Positions 16,604 through 61,291 of a stretch of 62,893 bases of DNA are shown one piece after another (the stretch's first letter is position 1; every line of letters starts with the position of its first letter). The notes under the pieces were generated by a model. The model saw only the letters and a list, made by a program, of their open reading frames with translations, made no database searches and was not told the origin of the DNA. The position numbers and the translations under genes are program-made. This DNA comes from Laspinema olomoucense D3a (GTDB lineage: Bacteria; Cyanobacteriota; Cyanobacteriia; Cyanobacteriales; Laspinemataceae): the NCBI RefSeq assembly GCF_025370815.1, contig NZ_JAMXFB010000041.1; one strand, given 5' to 3'.

Positions 16604-17089
16604 TTAAAAATTTTCACTCCCTTGAAACAATTCCATAAAAAACTGTTTAGACTTCTTAGCTTCCGGGATAAATCCAATCAAGGGTAACACTAAACCAAAA
16701 ATGAACATTCCCACAGGCATTAAGAACAAAGGGTGAAATTCTTCAAACAGGACCGCTAAAAACATCAAGGCAGCTTGTCCAACTATACCCAGCCAAACGC
16801 ACATAAAAATCAAAACAGCCCGGTGCAGTTTCATTTGAATTTCGATTTTACTGCCTTTAGCTTGGGCGTGAATTCGCCCCTCAATCTGGGGTAAAAAAGA
16901 ATTGCGATAGGAAATGATTCGAGAAATTTTGAAAGAATGTTCGCCGATTTGTCCCTGGTAGGGTTTTTCCGGCCTTTTCCACCGCACCGGGACCCATTGA
17001 GGGGGAGGTTCCACAACTGCTATTAATTTTTCCTGGACTTCATGGGGACTGAGATAAGTGGTCATTGTAAACCTTTGAAAGGGAAACAT
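16604..17089 (-). CDS. Paralog 3 of the tandem three-gene family
   Basis: MFPFQRFTMTTYLSPHEV...YQGQIGEHSFKISRIISYRNSFLPQIEGRIHAQAKGSKIEIQMKLH is about 60% identical to paralog 1. Confidence 0.6.
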   Translation of the reverse strand: MFPFQRFTMTTYLSPHEVQEKLIAVVEPPPQWVPVRWKRPEKPYQGQIGEHSFKISRIISYRNSFLPQIEGRIHAQAKGSKIEIQMKLHRAVLIFMCVWLGIVGQAALMFLAVLFEEFHPLFLMPVGMFIFGLVLPLIGFIPEAKKSKQFFMELFQGSENF

Positions 17090-17132: not shown

Positions 17133-17205
17133 TAGAGCCATTAATACCCAATCCGGTTGTGATAGATCTATAAATACCCCACCCGATCGGGTGCGGGTAT
17201 TTATT
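17133..17205. repeat. Partial copy of the interspersed hairpin repeat family (aatccggttgtgatagatctataaatacccacccgatcgggtgcgggta)
   Basis: Matches the elements at 57321-57447 and 58745-58872 over the cggaatccggttgtaatagatccataaaaacccgcaccc...ggtgggt module. Confidence 0.55.
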
Positions 17206-18998
17206 TAGTCCAAGCCCCTATCTTCCAGCATCCCCCGGAATTTGTGTTTGCGGGCGTGGATTTGTAGCAATTCTTGACGATAAGTTTTCCAGCGGGCCCA
17301 CTGCTCTTTTTGAATATAAGCTGCCCGCACTTTTTTCAACCAGTCGATCGCCTGATTATAGAATTCAGATTTTTTGCGATCTAAAATCGATTCGGCAAGG
17401 GGTTGCGCCGTTTCAATCACCCAGTCTGGACGGTGTTTAATCGCTGCATCCATGACCCGATGCACCAACTCTATCTCATAGGAACCAAAGCCTTCTACGG
17501 CGGCGATCGCCTCATCAATTAACCCTTCACTTAGGAAAATATCTACTTTAACCTCAGTTTTGTTCCAAATTTTATGTTCCCTCAGAGAATTTAATAAATT
17601 GGGCTGGTATTTGAACCAATTTTCAGCGGCTAATTCTTTTATTTTAAAATAATCCCTCGAAGTAGGGTTATCGTAAAAAGCGAATTTTCTCGCCTCCAGT
17701 TCTACCTCAGTATTTCCTAATTCTTCCGCTAAATCAGCGGTCCAACTGGCCAGTTTATATTGGGAATCTCCCCGTAATTTTAGCCCCATTACCCCGACTT
17801 CCAGGGCTGGGCTAACTTCCCCATTACTGCGTAAGGTTTGCCCCAGGGATAAGGCTTCTTCCATTGTTTTCATTTGGGTCCGGGCGGCTTCCATTGCTTC
17901 CGTAGTTCGTCCTAAACTGCCCAACATGGTAAGATATTGTTTTATTTTGCCTTGGGCTTTAGCCAGGTTCAAATACTCCTGATATCGCTCTTGCCGATCC
18001 AGAATTTTTAAGCGAATTAATACCAAATCCGGGGAAGCATTGGGGGAAGAATTTTCCGCTATTCCTGGTTCGGATAGGGTTCCTTGGAGGGCTTGTACCA
18101 AATGCGGTTCATCCCATCCTTCGCTGAGGGATTCTAAGCTGAGGGGAAATTCGGTACTCCACTCCTCTTGGAGGATTTTTAAGCGCGATCGCCACTGTTC
18201 CACTTCACGGGAACTAAGGGATTCGCTGAGAATCGCTTCGGCGATCGCCTCATCCACTGCTGTGACAATTTCATCGGACTCAATCCCATACTGTTCCACC
18301 CGGTCCCAATCGGCTGCACAAGCTGAGGCAATAGCTTCTAACACGATTAAAGCATTATAACTTTCCCCAATTTCTATTAATCCTTGAATATTATCAATTA
18401 AATCTAACAACTCCTCGGTTACCGGGTCATCTTCACCGTCTAAGCTTTCAAAATACCGCATCCCTTCATATAAAATATCCCGCGCCTGCTGACGAAAAGG
18501 AGCCGGATTGATAGGGGAAGGACGCTGATTATTGGGTGATTGTATTGGACTGATTATTTCATTATTTAAGGTAATGTAATAGTCAATTTCATCAATAATT
18601 TCGGGTCTTTGTTTAACTAACTCTTGCACTAGACCTTGGATTTGGGCCCGGTTGAGCTGAGCGAGCAATTGCTCCAAAGTCGGACGCTCTTGAATAGTTT
18701 CTGGTTGCCGCATTACCACCAATAAGGTAGCGACAATATGTTCACACCATTCAGACTTATCATCAGCACAAGAACAGGTCACCGAGGTCAAACAGCCCTG
18801 CTCAAACCCCACCCGAACCCGATAGGGTTGGTCTGCATTATCCATCACTTCGGCATTGAGTAAATTGCCTCGCCGAGTCACGGAGGTTACATTGCCCGCT
18901 TCATAATCCGACTGGCCTTTGCTAAACAATGCAGGGGCAGATTTCTGGCGAATGAGGCGATCGGTCAAGTCAGGAGTTTTAGACATAAAGCAATCCAA
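17205..18998 (-). CDS. SWIM zinc-finger domain protein
   Basis: CSCADDKSEWCEHIV matches the SWIM CxC-Xn-CxH signature near the N-terminus. Remainder helical and acidic, no family recognised. Confidence 0.6.
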   Translation of the reverse strand: MDCFMSKTPDLTDRLIRQKSAPALFSKGQSDYEAGNVTSVTRRGNLLNAEVMDNADQPYRVRVGFEQGCLTSVTCSCADDKSEWCEHIVATLLVVMRQPETIQERPTLEQLLAQLNRAQIQGLVQELVKQRPEIIDEIDYYITLNNEIISPIQSPNNQRPSPINPAPFRQQARDILYEGMRYFESLDGEDDPVTEELLDLIDNIQGLIEIGESYNALIVLEAIASACAADWDRVEQYGIESDEIVTAVDEAIAEAILSESLSSREVEQWRSRLKILQEEWSTEFPLSLESLSEGWDEPHLVQALQGTLSEPGIAENSSPNASPDLVLIRLKILDRQERYQEYLNLAKAQGKIKQYLTMLGSLGRTTEAMEAARTQMKTMEEALSLGQTLRSNGEVSPALEVGVMGLKLRGDSQYKLASWTADLAEELGNTEVELEARKFAFYDNPTSRDYFKIKELAAENWFKYQPNLLNSLREHKIWNKTEVKVDIFLSEGLIDEAIAAVEGFGSYEIELVHRVMDAAIKHRPDWVIETAQPLAESILDRKKSEFYNQAIDWLKKVRAAYIQKEQWARWKTYRQELLQIHARKHKFRGMLEDRGLD

Positions 18999-55292: not shown

Positions 55293-55687
55293 CGAGGGCT
55301 AGGTTCTAAAAACAGGACAGGCGATGGGCGATCGCTCACAGACGGATCTAGATATTTTTTCCCGGCGATCGGCGATTAATCCAGGGTGATGAGCTTGAAC
55401 GACTGACCAAAGCTTAACCGACTGCTGATCTCTACTTAATTTTGACATATAAAGAACCCTTCCTCTGCTTTAGGATTCCCGTTCAGTAGCCGGAAGAAAA
55501 ACCGGATTTGGTATTACTCATTTTTAGGGTCTTCCCGTTACGGTACCGATGCTCTACTTCCCATCGTTCGCCCTGTAAAAGCCCATAAAAAAATACCCCC
55601 CCGATGGGAGATATGGAGATCCGTTAAGTTTTTGAGAATTTATACCTAGCCTCTAGCGGACAAGGCTAGGTATGGAATCACTTTCCC

Positions 55688-56011
55688 TTAATGGGCGAGA
55701 ACAGGGATGCTCTTGAGTTCAGCAGTCAAACGGCTCAACATGGACCGCTGGCGTTTTGCCCCTTGAACTTGCCGATCCATCATCAGACGGCGAGCTTGTT
55801 CCGATGCCGAGGTTTTTGCGGACTGCGGTTCACCAGTGGTCAACGCAACTCCCCGATACTTCAGTTCCACGGTTGCTTGTTGAACCGGCGCTTTCTTCTG
55901 ATTGCAAAATTTCCAATCTAACCCGCGATATTTACCGGCGAGTTCGCCTTCGGTAACGTCAACTGCTGCGGGAGTATATTCGTAAGTGGTGCCACGATAT
56001 GAAAGTTTCAT
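55688..56011 (-). CDS. DUF4278-family cyanobacterial protein
   Basis: MKLSYRGTTYEYTP ... ELKYRGVALT duplicated Y-R-G motif typical of DUF4278. Confidence 0.55.
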   Translation of the reverse strand: MKLSYRGTTYEYTPAAVDVTEGELAGKYRGLDWKFCNQKKAPVQQATVELKYRGVALTTGEPQSAKTSASEQARRLMMDRQVQGAKRQRSMLSRLTAELKSIPVLAH

Positions 56012-56387: not shown

Positions 56388-57224
56388 TTGCAGGGCAAGC
56401 CCCTGTTTCGGCTAATCTCAAGCCTTTACATAACTCAACTGAGGAGAAACCTGATCGTGACTTATCGAAATACAGCCCGTTATCTGTGGAGTGTTCTAGT
56501 GGTGTTGGCCGGGGCTGCATCCCTCACCAGCGGGGCGATCGCACAGCCTGTTATTCAGGAAGTAGAATCCCATCAAACCGCATTTTTCTGGAGGCGACAG
56601 TCCGCCCCCGATCGCCTCGAAGGAGTCTGGGGGATTACGGAGGGTAAAACTCCCAGGGGACAAGCTTACACCGGCAGCCTCGATATTACCGCGATCGGGA
56701 ATACGGACAACCTCTATCAAGTCTCTTGGGAAACCTCCGAAGGCAATTATTCCGGGTTGGGGTTCTATGAAGAGGGGCGGTTGCTGGTAGGGGCCGGACT
56801 GGATGAGGAGATTTATGGCGTGGCCCTGTATAGAATTCAGGACGATGGTACTTTAGATGGGAAATGGACTCTCAGTAGCGCCGAGGGTGAAGTCGGCACA
56901 GAACTAGCTACAGGAGGGCGATCGGGAGAGTTAGCCGGGTCCTATCAAATTAGCAGTACAGACCCTGGAGAAGAGGATTCTGCCTTCAGTGGAGAATTAA
57001 CCATTACCCAATCCCGCGATACCTATCAAGTCACCTGGAACGTCGATGACCAAACCTATCGCGGAATCGGTTTGCGCGTTGATGATTGGCTCGTTGTTGG
57101 CTGGGGGACTAGCTCTAACCTCGCCGTGTTGGATTATGAATTTAAGGGCAACGAAGCGACTGCACGTTGGGCCCGAACCGGCAGTCGGGAACTGGGGATG
57201 GAAAAGATTTCCCTGGAAGATTAG
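56388..57224 (+). CDS. Secreted hypothetical protein; true start probably an internal GTG/ATG just before the signal peptide (RYLWSVLVVLAGAASLTSGAIAQP)
   Basis: Signal-peptide-like segment about 25 codons into the ORF, so the real start is likely near 56455. Gly/Thr/Glu-rich mature part. Confidence 0.45.
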   Translation: MQGKPLFRLISSLYITQLRRNLIVTYRNTARYLWSVLVVLAGAASLTSGAIAQPVIQEVESHQTAFFWRRQSAPDRLEGVWGITEGKTPRGQAYTGSLDITAIGNTDNLYQVSWETSEGNYSGLGFYEEGRLLVGAGLDEEIYGVALYRIQDDGTLDGKWTLSSAEGEVGTELATGGRSGELAGSYQISSTDPGEEDSAFSGELTITQSRDTYQVTWNVDDQTYRGIGLRVDDWLVVGWGTSSNLAVLDYEFKGNEATARWARTGSRELGMEKISLED

Positions 57225-57320
57225 GCGGCCCTCTAAGTCCTGGAGCCATCCCGGGTCTTCTCCAGCCCTCAAAAATTTCCTGATTCTCCCTTTCCTTTGA
57301 GGGGAAGGTTCGGGTCCGAT

Positions 57321-57447
57321 ACTGCATCCGGTTGTGACAGCCCTAACAATACTCTTGAGCCCGCGCAGGCGGGCTTTGTCTGTGTAGACCCACCCTTGAG
57401 GGTGCGGGTTTTTATAGACTTTGAGAACCGAATTCCGTATTATCCTC
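57321..57447 (-). repeat. ~125-bp interspersed repeat element (REP/MITE-like) with internal hairpins (acccgcaccc-N6-gggtgggt; agcccgc-N4-gcgggct); inverted copy of the element at 58745-58872
   Basis: The reverse complement aligns base-for-base with 58745-58872 over about 110 of 125 positions. Confidence 0.7.
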
Positions 57448-57573
57448 CATCCTCCCTGGGTTCGGGAAAGTCGCCTCTGGGCGATCGCCACCCCCAGATC
57501 TCCTCTTTTTGGTAAAAAATACTATAATTAGGAATAACACCCTAAAGAACTGCAAGTTCACCCCCTGAAAATT

Positions 57574-58548
57574 GTGTTTACTGCGACTTTATCACCGCGC
57601 AATTCTGCCCAAACCTCCGCGATTCCAGACGATTTATTTGCAGCCATTGAATCCTTGAAACAGGAACTCAATGCAGTGCTCCTCGCCCACTACTATCAAG
57701 AACCCGACATTCAGGATATTGCTGACTATATCGGTGACTCTCTCGAACTGGCCCGAAAAGCTGCCAATACCAACGCCGATGTCATCGTCTTTGCCGGAGT
57801 TCACTTCATGGCAGAAACGGCTAAAATCCTGAATCCGAATAAACTGGTTTTGCTTCCAGACTTGGATGCCGGTTGTTCCCTGGCCGATAGTTGTCCTCCC
57901 GATGCCTTTGGGGAATTTAAAGCCGCTCATCCGAATCATATTGTCATCTCTTACATTAACTGCTCGGCGGCCATTAAAGCCATGAGCGACATTATCTGCA
58001 CCAGTTCTAATGCAGTCAAACTGGTGCGGCAAATCCCCGAAAATCAGCCGATTATTTTTGCCCCCGATCGCAATTTAGGTCGGTATGTGATGGAGCAAAC
58101 GGGCCGGGATATGGTGTTGTGGCAAGGCAGTTGCATGGTGCATGAAACTTTTTCAGAAAAGAAAATTGTTCAGCTCAAAATTCAACATCCTGAAGCTGAA
58201 ATCATTGCTCATCCCGAATGTGAACCGACGGTGTTGCGCCATGCTAATTATATTGGGTCAACCAGTGCGCTGTTAAACTATGCTCAAAATAGTGCCAGCC
58301 AGGTGTTTATCGTGGCTACGGAACCGGGAATCATTCATCAAATGCAAAAACAGGCGGGAGATAAACAGTTTATTCCCGCGCCACCCCTGAATAGTTGTGC
58401 TTGTAATGAATGCCCTCACATGAGGCTGAATACCTTAGAAAAATTATATTTGGCTATGAAAAATCGCGCCCCGGAGATTACCTTACCGGAGGAAACGCGC
58501 AAGGCAGCATTGCGCCCGATGCAACGAATGCTAGAAATGAGCGCATAA
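57574..58548 (+). CDS. nadA: Quinolinate synthase A
   Basis: N-terminal [29 protein letters not shown], plus three-domain repeat structure and Cys ligand positions typical of NadA. 324 aa. Confidence 0.8.
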
Positions 58549-58682
58549 TCATAGTAAATCCCGCTGTTTCAAGCTCAGGTAGGCGGCGATTGTTTAGATG
58601 AACACCTAACGACAGCAAGTCGTTAGGTCATCCGTATAGCCCTCTTTGGAGGGTGTTGGTTTTTGCTAGTTTCAATCGAAAA

Positions 58683-58713
58683 GGGTAGGGCAATGCCGTA
58701 CCCTTTTTTTATT
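58683..58713 (+). terminator. Rho-independent terminator: gggtagggc-aat-gccgtaccc stem-loop followed by TTTTTTTATTTT
   Basis: 9-bp stem (one mismatch), 3-nt loop, 7-T run. A second hairpin (cctaacgac agcaa gtcgttagg) sits at ~58604-58630. Both are downstream of nadA. Confidence 0.6.
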
Positions 58714-58744
58714 TTGGGAATCAGGCAATGAATGATTGCCTAAC

Positions 58745-58872
58745 CGAATATTATACGGAATCCGGTTGTAATAGATCCATAAAAACCCGCACCCATGCAT
58801 GGTGGGTCTACACAGACGAAGCCCGCCTGCGCGGGCTGAAGAGAAAATCGACTTTTAACAACCGGATTTGGT
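58745..58872 (+). repeat. ~125-bp interspersed repeat element, direct-orientation copy (partner of 57321-57447)
   Basis: tacggaatccggttgtaatagatccataaaaacccgcaccc atgcat ggtgggtctacacagacgaagcccgcctgcgcgggctgaagag. Confidence 0.7.
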
Positions 58873-58873
58873 A

Positions 58874-59404
58874 TTATTGATTTAAAAAGGCGTGAAGGTG
58901 GGATGCAAGTTTCTCGATGATTCCTTCCTCATTTTGTAAACTTTTTTCAGCTTCGGCTTCGATGCGCGGGACTACATCCTCGGGCAAATTCAGGAGGGAA
59001 ACGAGTTTTTTGTAGGCTTGAGCTTCTTCGGCATTAATATTAGGCTCATCGGGGGTTCGGGAACTGGAGGCGATGACTTCATAGCCGATTTGCAGAACCA
59101 GTTCCCGTTCGGGTTGGGTGGCGAGTTTAGGGATTAATTCTTCCAGCGGGATGTTTTGCATCATATAGTCCCGCAGTTCTTCTTTGAGTTTGTCTTGTTG
59201 TTGGGGACTGACGGAAAATAAGCGACTAAAGCGATCGAGCATGATCTCGACTTCTTCTGCCCCGAGTTCGCCATCTGCCCATGCCATTGCGGTTACAACT
59301 CGTAACAGGTTCATCTGACGCGGGGTGATGGAGGGTGGGGGTGGGGGTTGGATTGCCATTGTTTTTTCCTCAAAATATGGGAAGTTGTGGCAAAACTTTA
59401 TCAT
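58874..59404 (-). CDS. TerB-like domain protein (tellurite-resistance TerB / DjlA-N-like fold)
   Basis: VTAMAWADGELGAEEVEIML is TerB-like. 176 aa, helical. Confidence 0.35.
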   Translation of the reverse strand: MIKFCHNFPYFEEKTMAIQPPPPPSITPRQMNLLRVVTAMAWADGELGAEEVEIMLDRFSRLFSVSPQQQDKLKEELRDYMMQNIPLEELIPKLATQPERELVLQIGYEVIASSSRTPDEPNINAEEAQAYKKLVSLLNLPEDVVPRIEAEAEKSLQNEEGIIEKLASHLHAFLNQ

Positions 59405-59497: not shown

Positions 59498-61291
59498 TTA
59501 CCCTTTAAGTTGACTCACCGAACTCCCTAACCAGCCTTTGAGATTATTCTGTTGAGTCGCGGTGGGATTCTGAATGGGGACGATATTGTAAGTTGTGGGA
59601 CGGGGTTGGGTGAGCACCGCCTCAACGGTTCGTAATTGTTCTTGATGGAAAACCGTAATTTGGATTTTGGACCCGGTTTGATAGTCTTTCAGGCGATCGC
59701 CCAAATCTTCGGCAGTAACGCGCATTCCATCGATCGCCAGTAACTCATCATCGGCATCGATTCCCGCCCGTTGCGCGGGTGAACCCATTTCTACAAATTT
59801 AATCGCCGCTTTACCATTTTCTGTCTTAACTGTCAAGCCCAAAAACGGTGCTGCATCATTATTTTCCACGGGTTGCACTTTTAACCCAAAGGGTTGCAGA
59901 TACTCATCCAGAGGTAATTCGGCAGTCCCGTGGATGTAGTCGTTAAAGAAGTCCGTTAAATCTTCTTCGGCAACGGATTCAATAATCTCTTTGAGTTCCT
60001 CATCGGTAAAGCCAATTTCTTGGGGTCCAAACCGCTGCCACATTTGCTGCATCACCTGATCCAGCGATCGCGCGTTGCCGGAGTTTGCCCGAATTCGCAA
60101 ATCTAACAACAGGGAAACTAATTCTCCTTTCAAATAATAGGAAATTTGGGAATTATCGCTATTCGCATCCCGGCGATACAGTTTAATCCAAGCATCCCAA
60201 CTCGATTCACTCAGGGGTTGATAACGACGTCCCGGAAGGGTTTGCAAGCGGGTAATATCTTTACTTAACCCTTGTAAGGCGATTTTTGCATCATAAATGC
60301 CCGCCCACAAGGGTAGCAGAATATCATAATAACTGGTGGTTCCTTCAGAAAACCACAGAGAAGTCGTGTAAGTTTCCCCTTCATAGTTAAACACTTCTAG
60401 GGGTTTGGGACGAATGCGCTTAACATTCCACAAGTGGAAAAACTCGTGGGCGACTAATTGAATGAAGCGGTTGTATTTTTCGGGATTTCTAAATCCAAAG
60501 CGGGGATAGTTCAAAGAACAGCTATTTTTATGTTCCAATCCGCCATAGCCTTGGGAGGAGAGATGGAGAATAAACAAATAGCGATCGTAAGGTAACCCTC
60601 CGAATAGCCGACTTTCGGTTTCAATGATTTTTTCAATATCCGAAATCAGCCGTTCAGCTTGGATATTTCCCTGGCCCCAAATAGCTAATTCATGGGGTTT
60701 ATGTTCGACTTCAAAATAATAAGATTGGTGCGTCCCAATTTCAAAAGGACTATCCACCAAGGTATCGAAATCCGGGGAGGTAAAGGTGTGGGGACGTCCC
60801 GATTTGGAAGGTAGTGAAGTGGTAACCCGCCATTCCGGTTTTGGGGGGATAACCTGAATGGAAATCGGGCTTTTTTCAAACCCGGGGATATAGAAGAAGA
60901 GGGCAGCACCGTTAAAATAGCCATGAGTGCTATCTAGGTGATTGGTTCGCACCGAGAGTTCATTGGCATAGATGCGATAGCGAACGATAATTTCCGAGAG
61001 TTCTGAGGTTTCGATTTGCCAGTGATTTTTGCTGACTTTACGCCAAGGTAGGGCGATTTCATTGGCGTCTTCAGCGGAGAATTCCTGGAGATGTTTGGCA
61101 TACTCCCGGACTAAATAGGAACCCGGAGTCCAAACGGGCATTTTCAAATCCAGGACCGATGCCCGCCATCCCCGCACTTTTAACATCACGTCAAACAGAT
61201 GAGATTCTGGCTCATACATGGCCACCTGATAGTAAACATCGGGGGCAATTCGAGGCATGGTACTCGGTGGAATTGTCGTTGCTTCAGTCAT
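59498..61291 (-). CDS. M61-family glycyl aminopeptidase with C-terminal PDZ domain
   Basis: HEFFHLWNVKRIRP HExxH zinc site with downstream Glu, in an M61-like context. C-terminal PDZ-like segment (GLTVKTENGKAAIKFVEMGSPAQRAGIDADDELLAIDG). Confidence 0.7.
   Translation of the reverse strand: MTEATTIPPSTMPRIAPDVYYQVAMYEPESHLFDVMLKVRGWRASVLDLKMPVWTPGSYLVREYAKHLQEFSAEDANEIALPWRKVSKNHWQIETSELSEIIVRYRIYANELSVRTNHLDSTHGYFNGAALFFYIPGFEKSPISIQVIPPKPEWRVTTSLPSKSGRPHTFTSPDFDTLVDSPFEIGTHQSYYFEVEHKPHELAIWGQGNIQAERLISDIEKIIETESRLFGGLPYDRYLFILHLSSQGYGGLEHKNSCSLNYPRFGFRNPEKYNRFIQLVAHEFFHLWNVKRIRPKPLEVFNYEGETYTTSLWFSEGTTSYYDILLPLWAGIYDAKIALQGLSKDITRLQTLPGRRYQPLSESSWDAWIKLYRRDANSDNSQISYYLKGELVSLLLDLRIRANSGNARSLDQVMQQMWQRFGPQEIGFTDEELKEIIESVAEEDLTDFFNDYIHGTAELPLDEYLQPFGLKVQPVENNDAAPFLGLTVKTENGKAAIKFVEMGSPAQRAGIDADDELLAIDGMRVTAEDLGDRLKDYQTGSKIQITVFHQEQLRTVEAVLTQPRPTTYNIVPIQNPTATQQNNLKGWLGSSVSQLKG

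Follow-up and report, generated by a model that had tools for sequence, protein, structure and literature searches.

The described bacterial repeats closest to the element treated here are (i) Nezha of Anabaena variabilis and Nostoc PCC 7120 (Zhou et al., 2008, as summarised in PMC3184786), (ii) the terminator-bearing MITEs (miniature transposable elements with inverted repeats) Correia/NEMIS, ERIC and SPRITE (reviewed in PMC10969869), (iii) the superfamily of GTAG-tagged repetitive extragenic palindromes (REPs), which occur in Chloroflexi as well as Cyanobacteria, in some cases within a longer palindrome (Di Nocera et al., 2013, PMC3733652), and (iv) the systems of REP doublets forming hairpins (REPINs) and REP-associated tyrosine transposases (RAYTs) (Bertels and Rainey, 2011, PMC3116915; Quentin et al., 2018, PMC6006769). 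In a stretch of 62,893 nt from Laspinema olomoucense D3a (contig NZ_JAMXFB010000041.1; the whole of this 63-kb stretch is referred to below as the window), two complete copies and three fragments of such a repeat were distinguished, the complete copies standing on either side of the gene nadA. We assign the repeat with good confidence to the MITEs and regard the bracketing of nadA as the result of two independent insertions.

The two complete copies (coordinates of all features are given in Table 1) lie in opposite orientation and share 86% nucleotide sequence identity over a 94-nt core (blastn within the window, E = 4e-25). An earlier sequence-only reading had described them as an inverted pair matching almost base for base; the alignment bears this out and refines the limits, and the three modules quoted in that reading were all found in the copies. 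The element is 120-122 bp long and non-coding, the sole overlapping open reading frame (ORF) being a mechanical 50-codon frame. Each window copy has terminal inverted repeats of its own, 17-20 nt in length (ATACGGAATCCGGTTGT ... ACAACCGGATTTGGTAT), which were detected by a repeat search and form the closing stem of the predicted fold. Terminal inverted repeats of the same length range are also present in the copies of loci L001 (L. olomoucense D3b), L124, L066 and L008, and their general form is (T)ATAC[GG/CA]AATCCGGTTGT. The interior of each copy consists of two hairpins. The first (hp1), ACCCGCACCC-loop-GGGTGGGT with CTAC after it, is an imperfect palindrome, and the opposite strand therefore reads GTAG, the imperfect palindrome and TTTTTAT; the second (hp2, AGCCCGCCTGCGCGGGCT) has the structure AGCCCGC-CTGC-GCGGGCT. 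The folding energies lie 2.3-5.4 standard deviations under those of shuffled sequence (z -2.3 to -5.4). Promoter-like hexamer pairs were also noticed at the element ends (57415-57443 and 58848-58877, both on the + strand; 9/12 matches, consensus matches only); their -10 box, TATTAT, is composed of the terminal GTAT and flanking bases, and the upstream pair is directed toward nadA.

Comparison with related loci revealed both filled and empty sites. The loci L122 (GCA_025370715.1) and L123 (GCA_025370725.1), sharing 98.2 and 97.8% nucleotide sequence identity with the window over 9 kb, respectively, carry both nadA-flanking copies with zero differences from the window. The upstream copy is missing from L124 (GCA_011390515.1, ~93% nucleotide identity) and from the short contig L125, where the spacing from the 255-aa gene to nadA is 127 bp (350 bp in the window), and the downstream copy is missing from L124 and L126 (~91% identity). 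At the downstream site the window is longer than L124 by exactly 123 bp; the empty site has one ATTAT (...CCTAACCGGAT ATTAT TGATTC...), which in the window stands on each side of the insert (...CCGAAT ATTAT ACGGAATCC...GGATTTGGT ATTAT TGATTT...). The single TTA of L124 (5610-5612) is the stop codon of the same TerB-like gene that adjoins the downstream copy in the window; since the element landed on this stop codon and the duplication of TTA restored it, the codon is intact after the insertion. Insertion sites vary by lineage, which argues for mobility: L124 has no copy at either nadA site and carries an intact one elsewhere (1939-2061, flanked by TTA on both sides). That copy occupies the intergenic region in which the window has a remnant at 55500-55514, and L122, like the window, retains the 15-nt right-end remnant only, the rest of this intergenic region being too diverged to align with L124.

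The flanking triplets of six complete copies were compared in one orientation. TTA stands on both sides of the downstream window copy and of the L124 copy, TAA on both sides of the L001, L066 and L008 copies, and the upstream window copy has TAA on the left and TCG on the right. Five of the six complete copies, from several genomes, thus show a direct 3-bp duplication, TAA or TTA. In these five the variable middle base is repeated directly and is not complemented, which identifies the triplets as a duplication of the target and not as an extension of the inverted repeats. DDE transposases of the IS5/PIF-Harbinger type typically duplicate 3 bp of the form TWA. The copies also fall into sub-lineages, the downstream window copy grouping with the L124 copy and the upstream one with the L001 copy (90% identity); as the copies flanking nadA belong to different sub-lineages, they represent independent insertions and not a duplicated pair. 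The existence of copies elsewhere and in further genomes, together with the exact empty sites, ruled out a local duplication or a chance resemblance. The sequence-only reading had suspected a REP/MITE-type non-autonomous family, and had pointed out that two copies and no others would indicate a local duplication instead. Its suspicion is supported by the empty sites, the 3-bp duplications, the copies at other loci and in other taxa, and the GTAG-tagged hp1, and further copies do exist in Laspinema as well as in other taxa.

Several observations weigh against the assignment to MITEs. The length of the duplication is ambiguous when taken from one pair of sites, since a single empty/filled pair fits 1, 3 or 5 bp because the element ends AT...AT; 5 bp is excluded by the comparison across copies, and the duplication is taken to be 3 bp (TWA), favoured over 1 bp on prior knowledge. 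The upstream copy sits in a 223-bp segment missing from L124 and has unequal flanks (TAA and TCG), and the extra 94 bp of this segment had no second occurrence among all sequences compared. A transposase gene enclosed by a pair of these terminal repeats was sought in ~0.9 Mb of sequence and not found. Copy number was low where it was measured: there are two complete copies in the window, and a strict 23-nt core pattern gave one site in 185,579 representative genomes, an exact match in L. olomoucense D3b. Finally, the cargo of the element is similar to REP elements, for which a different, single-strand route of movement is assumed.

In the scenario that we consider to fit these data, the element inserts at T-A/T-A (TWA) triplets, which become duplicated, and would move by a cut-and-paste reaction of a putative transposase supplied in trans. 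In a common ancestor of the L. olomoucense strains, the intergenic regions beside nadA were probably hit independently by two members of different sub-lineages. One insertion stands upstream of the nadA promoter and the other coincides exactly with the TAA stop codon of the convergent TerB-like gene; nadA itself is not involved. The family is resident in Laspinema and in some other bacteria.

Two inverted copies 1.3 kb apart around one gene could also be read as a recombination device, in which exchange between the copies inverts the nadA segment, either as a switch or as a source of rearrangements. We regard this as highly improbable. The core is 86% identical and the longest identical run is 19 bp, a length that does not exceed the minimum usually required for RecA-dependent exchange; the copies come from different sub-lineages, and the orientation and flanks of nadA are equal in the three strains that have the pair and in the relatives without it. 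Inversion is therefore unlikely, given the short shared run and the constant gene order and orientation in related loci, and deletion is not expected, because inverted repeats would invert the segment and not delete it. The suggestion of the sequence-only reading that the pair could invert or delete nadA is accordingly not supported, and the comparison of nadA orientation among strains that it recommended showed no change in any of the five related loci, with or without elements. The gene, whose ORF begins with a GTG start codon and whose product is ~100% identical to NadA of L. olomoucense, is conserved in its coding sequence and promoter block (TACTATAAT and surroundings) irrespective of the presence of the elements. 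Another repeat occurs at its 3' end: L124 contains there (4976-5560) approximately seven tandem ~98-bp units of a different GTAG REP doublet (GTAG TAACGAC TTCA GTCGTTA ... TGACGCC TTCA GGCGTCA CTAC GAACGAAG), of which the window retains a single degenerate unit (~58600-58640). The loop of this degenerate REP hairpin (58614-58625) is the main difference between L123 and the window.

The two hairpins carried by the element were also found outside Laspinema. A 22-nt pattern, composed of hp2 and its leader, matched at least 120 metagenome contigs, with 41-76% G+C among the matches listed. Nearly all of these contigs share a common layout: a variable hairpin with a TGAA, TAAA or TCAA loop, (G)CTAC, 4-5 nt, ACRAAG and hp2. 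The linker between the hairpins is thus CTAC-N4-5-ACRAAG, and CTAC stands 3' of hp1 in most family members. An ungapped alignment of 57 columns and 28 diverse members was used for the analysis of covariation and served as the basis of a covariance model (R1). Each of the inner four pairs of hp1 shows 3-15 double substitutions among the 28 sequences; 84.8% of the cells are paired, vs 23-46% with the partner slid by 1-3 columns, and the observed covariation score was reached by none of 500 shuffles. In copies not selected for hp2, compensatory changes were also found in this hairpin (13 C-G to G-C and 12 G-C to A-U). Model R1 detects in the window only the two known copies, and it gave 177 matches in 100 loci and 57 matches in 27 further loci. 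In a larger alignment (A3, 150 members), read on the hp1-to-hp2 strand, the stems contain 43 G.T pairs vs 18 A.C pairs, although these counts are not independent, many copies being related; the excess is a weak hint that this strand is the folded one.

The module occurs singly, in inverted doublets and in tandem arrays with a 66-94-bp period. Its hosts include L004, a Roseiflexaceae-like member of Chloroflexota (RpoD 95% identical to that of a metagenome-assembled genome), and, with a G+C-rich family member as the query, it was found on plasmids of Gloeothece verrucosa PCC 7822 and G. citriformis PCC 7424; the Laspinema element as the query gave no matches in the plasmid collection. The module is a dispersed, doublet- and array-forming repeat of Cyanobacteria, Chloroflexota and taxonomically unassigned high-G+C bacteria. 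The same cargo is enclosed by different outer inverted repeats, namely TACCAAATCCGG... in Laspinema, L066 and L008, GACCGAAATGATGG... in L032 and L050, and GGTTTGGCTTTGAACCC... in PCC 7822. The positions at which the cargo was seen within unrelated outer inverted repeats are ~230-420 in L032 and L050, 1455-1680 in L131 and 170-300 in L066. This distribution suggests that the cargo repeatedly enters, or is captured by, hairpin-forming DNA. All-against-all BLASTP of the ORFs of the metagenome loci gave generic families only, that is, no recurrent protein family beside the module, and the 16-mer of hp2 was not found in print in the searchable literature. As a tentative proposal, which we rate as possible and no higher, the GTAG hairpin and the near-invariant AGCCCGCCTGCGCGGGCT hairpin at a fixed distance may constitute a structured unit in its own right, mobile or protein-binding and undescribed as such, of Cyanobacteria, Chloroflexota and high-G+C soil bacteria. 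Such a unit would be recognised by a conserved protein and would end up repeatedly in unrelated inverted-repeat carriers, perhaps via insertion into hairpin-forming DNA, and what Rfam lists as the family CRISPR-DR28 would be a sample of this unit filed under the wrong heading.

Stem covariation of this strength, the predominance of G.T over A.C pairs on one strand and a fold more stable than that of shuffled sequence would also be expected of cis-acting RNA elements (terminators, insulators or stabilisers of mRNA 3' ends) selected and kept for their function. In both window copies hp1 and the T-run resemble a terminator, in each case in the sense orientation of the adjacent upstream gene (57391-57404 (+) and 58807-58791 (-); consensus match only), and the orientation of hp1 in the L001 copy is the same. 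It is plausible that hp1 and the T-run, on the GTAG strand, would act at each copy as a stop for transcripts coming from the upstream gene. As an explanation of the family, though, selection for such a role appears quite unlikely. Close relatives differ in the presence of the element, their flanking genes being intact; nadA has terminator-like hairpins of its own at 58639-58654 and 58679-58707 (the latter being the canonical terminator that had been noted just before the downstream copy, and which was indeed found); and the intact L124 copy is antisense to both flanking genes. Across the metagenome loci the orientation relative to flanking ORFs is unbiased (17, 15, 9 and 8 in the four classes, based on crude gene calls), the tandem arrays argue for proliferation and not placement, and no Rfam family matched the whole structure. 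Termination or insulation is thus a possible property of the element, one not needed to explain the data.

The resemblance of the cargo to REPs raises a different possibility, i.e., that the element is a REP or REPIN moved as single-stranded DNA by a RAYT, its terminal inverted repeats being the outer stem of a REPIN-like long hairpin. The GTAG at the foot of a G+C-rich imperfect palindrome, by which REPs are recognised, is found in hp1, whose layout, including the TGAA-type loop, is that of the E. coli REP. The inverted doublets and tandem arrays formed by the module in other genomes are also REP-like. Each window copy has one GTAG hairpin; inverted module doublets were seen in loci of the Chloroflexota type and on the plasmid of Gloeothece PCC 7822. 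Moreover, GTAG REPs have been described from Cyanobacteria and Chloroflexi, and in Anabaena variabilis dimers of REPs are contained in long palindromes (PMC3733652). A tblastn search with nine published RAYT/TIRYT sequences detected one gene, L001:5897-6517 (Pfam Y1_Tnp, 26.3 bits; motifs NHFH and YIQQNP; homologues named RayT), located 1.4 kb from the sole exact-core copy, in L. olomoucense D3b. A kinase gene, however, lies between the RAYT gene and the element in L001, and the window encodes no RAYT. RAYT orthologues from three more species (L128, Spirulina subsalsa (L129) and Oscillatoria sp. HE19RPO (L130)) were also examined. In all four species the RAYT is directly followed by clusters of a different REP (GTAGGGGCG...GCCC), and model R1 did not find the module beside the RAYT gene in L128, L129 or L130. 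A cognate RAYT flanked by the module was therefore not found in L001, L128, L129 or L130, all of one clade, and, since the cognate REP differs and R1 finds no adjoining module, this clade is not the partner of the module; the proximity of RAYT and element in L001 is probably coincidental. A target duplication and terminal inverted repeats are present in five of the six copies, and IS200/IS605-type and RAYT enzymes are not known to produce a target duplication or to need terminal inverted repeats. Movement of the element by a RAYT is for these reasons judged unlikely, and we retain its assignment to MITEs. The RAYT genes with their downstream clusters of GTAGGGGCG(T/C)A...GCCC REP doublets (L001 5897-7029, L128 4001-5263, L129 4001-5244, L130 4001-5165) are an observation in their own right. 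The RAYT gene lies upstream of a gene with an FGE-sulfatase domain in L001, L128 and L129 and has a kinase gene immediately 5' in L001 and L128, and this arrangement looks like a vertically inherited REPtron.

At a relaxed threshold, hp2 of the window was matched by the Rfam family RF01356 ("CRISPR-DR28") with 32 bits (gathering score 35). The 24-nt consensus of this family, GGCAAAGCCCGCCUGCGCGGGCUA, is equivalent to hp2 with the ACRAAG leader, and matches above threshold (36-40.5 bits) were obtained in the tandem arrays of the module in L026, L006, L097 and L110. As the "spacers" of these arrays are themselves repeated (hp1 and the linker), they are not CRISPR arrays. RF01356 appears to describe this REP-like repeat rather than a CRISPR repeat. 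At nadA, a CRISPR array was ruled out, the locus having two isolated inverted copies 1.4 kb apart. The only Rfam family that matched the window at gathering thresholds was the glutamine riboswitch (RF01739; 56051-56143 (-), 52.9 bits vs gathering score 35), located directly upstream of a 107-aa DUF4278 ORF (55688-56011 (-)).

The sequence-only reading had also listed three partial copies elsewhere in the window, which fared differently. The one placed at 17133-17205 is real, with limits at 17142-17205. For the one placed at ~55478-55510, a remnant on the + strand was confirmed, although it comprises the right end only and is located at 55500-55514. The third, at ~178-205, is doubtful: the segment 173-200 has merely a hairpin resembling hp1 (10.5 bits, E = 0.12 with the family covariance model). 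The 13-mer pattern of the terminal repeats has 7 matches in the window, vs 2.1 expected, and 7 was reached in none of 100 shuffles; one exact match, of uncertain status, falls within an ORF. Pairs of ORFs of equal length stand beside copies in the 17-kb and 59-kb regions, i.e., 597 aa (17205-18998(-) and 59498-61291(-)) and 161 aa (16604-17089(-) and 58874-59359(-)). A segment duplication between these regions was considered and rejected, as the lengths alone agree, BLASTP shows no similarity, and the agreement is a coincidence.

Table 1. Features of the probable MITE copies in the window, fragments of the element, and arrays of the two-hairpin module matched by RF01356.
Feature	Sequence	Position	Strand	Remarks
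Upstream copy, 122 bp	ATAC...GTAT	57319-57440	- (hp1-to-hp2 direction)	Between the nadA promoter and the 255-aa gene ending at 57224
Upstream copy, terminal inverted repeat, right end in element orientation	ATACTGCATCCGGTTGT	57319-57335		Repeat search
Upstream copy, hp2	AGCCCGC GCAG GCGGGCT	57358-57375		Model R1, 68.1 bits; near-match of RF01356, 32.4 bits (gathering score 35)
Upstream copy, GTAG + hp1 + TTTTTAT	hp1: ACCCACCC TTGA GGGTGCGGGT	57384-57416	+	Terminator-like; stem 57391-57404, then T-run
Upstream copy, terminal inverted repeat, left end in element orientation	AGAACCGAATTCCGTAT	57424-57440		Repeat search
Downstream copy, left target-site duplication	TTA	58751-58753		Empty vs filled site
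Downstream copy, 122 bp as ATAC...GTAT; 120 bp (58754-58873) given a 3-bp duplication	ATAC...GTAT	58753-58874	+	Exact 123-bp insertion vs L124
Downstream copy, left terminal inverted repeat	ATACGGAATCCGGTTGT	58753-58769		Repeat search; closing stem in fold
Downstream copy, hp1 then CTAC	ACCCGCACCC ATGCAT GGTGGGT	58785-58811	+	- strand: GTAG + hairpin + T-run, terminator-like (58807-58791)
Downstream copy, hp2	AGCCCGC CTGC GCGGGCT	58820-58837		Model R1; RF01356 ~32 bits
Downstream copy, right terminal inverted repeat	ACAACCGGATTTGGTAT	58858-58874		Repeat search
Downstream copy, right TTA duplication = TAA stop codon of the TerB-like gene 58874-59359(-)	TTA	58874-58876	-	ORF and empty-site comparison
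Rearranged half copy: left terminal repeat and palindromised hp1	TAATACCCAATCCGGTTGT; ATAAATACCCCACCC GATC GGGTGCGGGTATTTAT	17142-17205	+	Without hp2 and right end
Exact terminal-repeat 13-mer	ATACCAAATCCGG	18020-18032	+	In the 597-aa ORF 17205-18998(-); status uncertain
Solo right-end remnant	AACCGGATTTGGTAT	55500-55514	+	Exact 13-mer at 55502-55514
RF01356 array matches, L026		2459-2550 and 8513-8740		
RF01356 array matches, L006		3103-3194		
RF01356 array matches, L097		10457-10612		
RF01356 array matches, L110		5231-5542		

The insertions have little consequence for nadA: it is intact, as are its promoter block and terminators, and element-free relatives do not differ in them. Their value lies in documenting what is very probably a cyanobacterial MITE, with exact empty sites, a TWA target and one insertion that regenerated a stop codon, and the presence or absence of the insertions could serve as a marker of Laspinema lineages. 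The REP-like two-hairpin module, present in different inverted-repeat carriers across phyla, provides a lead on small bacterial repeats. It also has a bearing on curation, as an Rfam "CRISPR repeat" model recognises the module and false CRISPR calls are possible in Chloroflexota and cyanobacterial genomes. The repeat family is real and of an ordinary kind, and its interest remains in the cross-phylum two-hairpin cargo.

When set beside the known systems, the Laspinema element shares with Correia/NEMIS, ERIC and SPRITE a small size, inverted repeats, a location in 3' untranslated regions, stable folds and possible terminator-like hairpins, whereas it has no sequence relationship to them and its effect on transcripts is a prediction. 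The likeness to Nezha, as far as the latter is covered by the summary cited above, lies in the description. Nezha is likewise a non-coding element of ~120-170 bp with terminal inverted repeats, flanking direct repeats and a stable fold, and its mobility was likewise deduced from empty and filled orthologous sites in close relatives. According to the same summary, Nezha has a proposed parent insertion sequence (ISNpu3-like), whereas none was found for the Laspinema element; conversely, the REP-like two-hairpin cargo is absent from the description of Nezha given there. The long palindrome of A. variabilis with nested REP dimers starts with TATAGGAnT (PMC3733652) and the Laspinema element with TATACGGAAT. 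A target duplication and terminal inverted repeats set the Laspinema unit apart from REPs and REPINs, and the RAYT clade tested has another cognate REP. The module itself, compared with published families by description, has in common with GTAG REPs the G+C-rich imperfect palindrome, the GTAG foot, the doublets and clusters, and hosts among Cyanobacteria and Chloroflexi; unlike them, it always includes a second, untagged hairpin, hp2, at a fixed distance.

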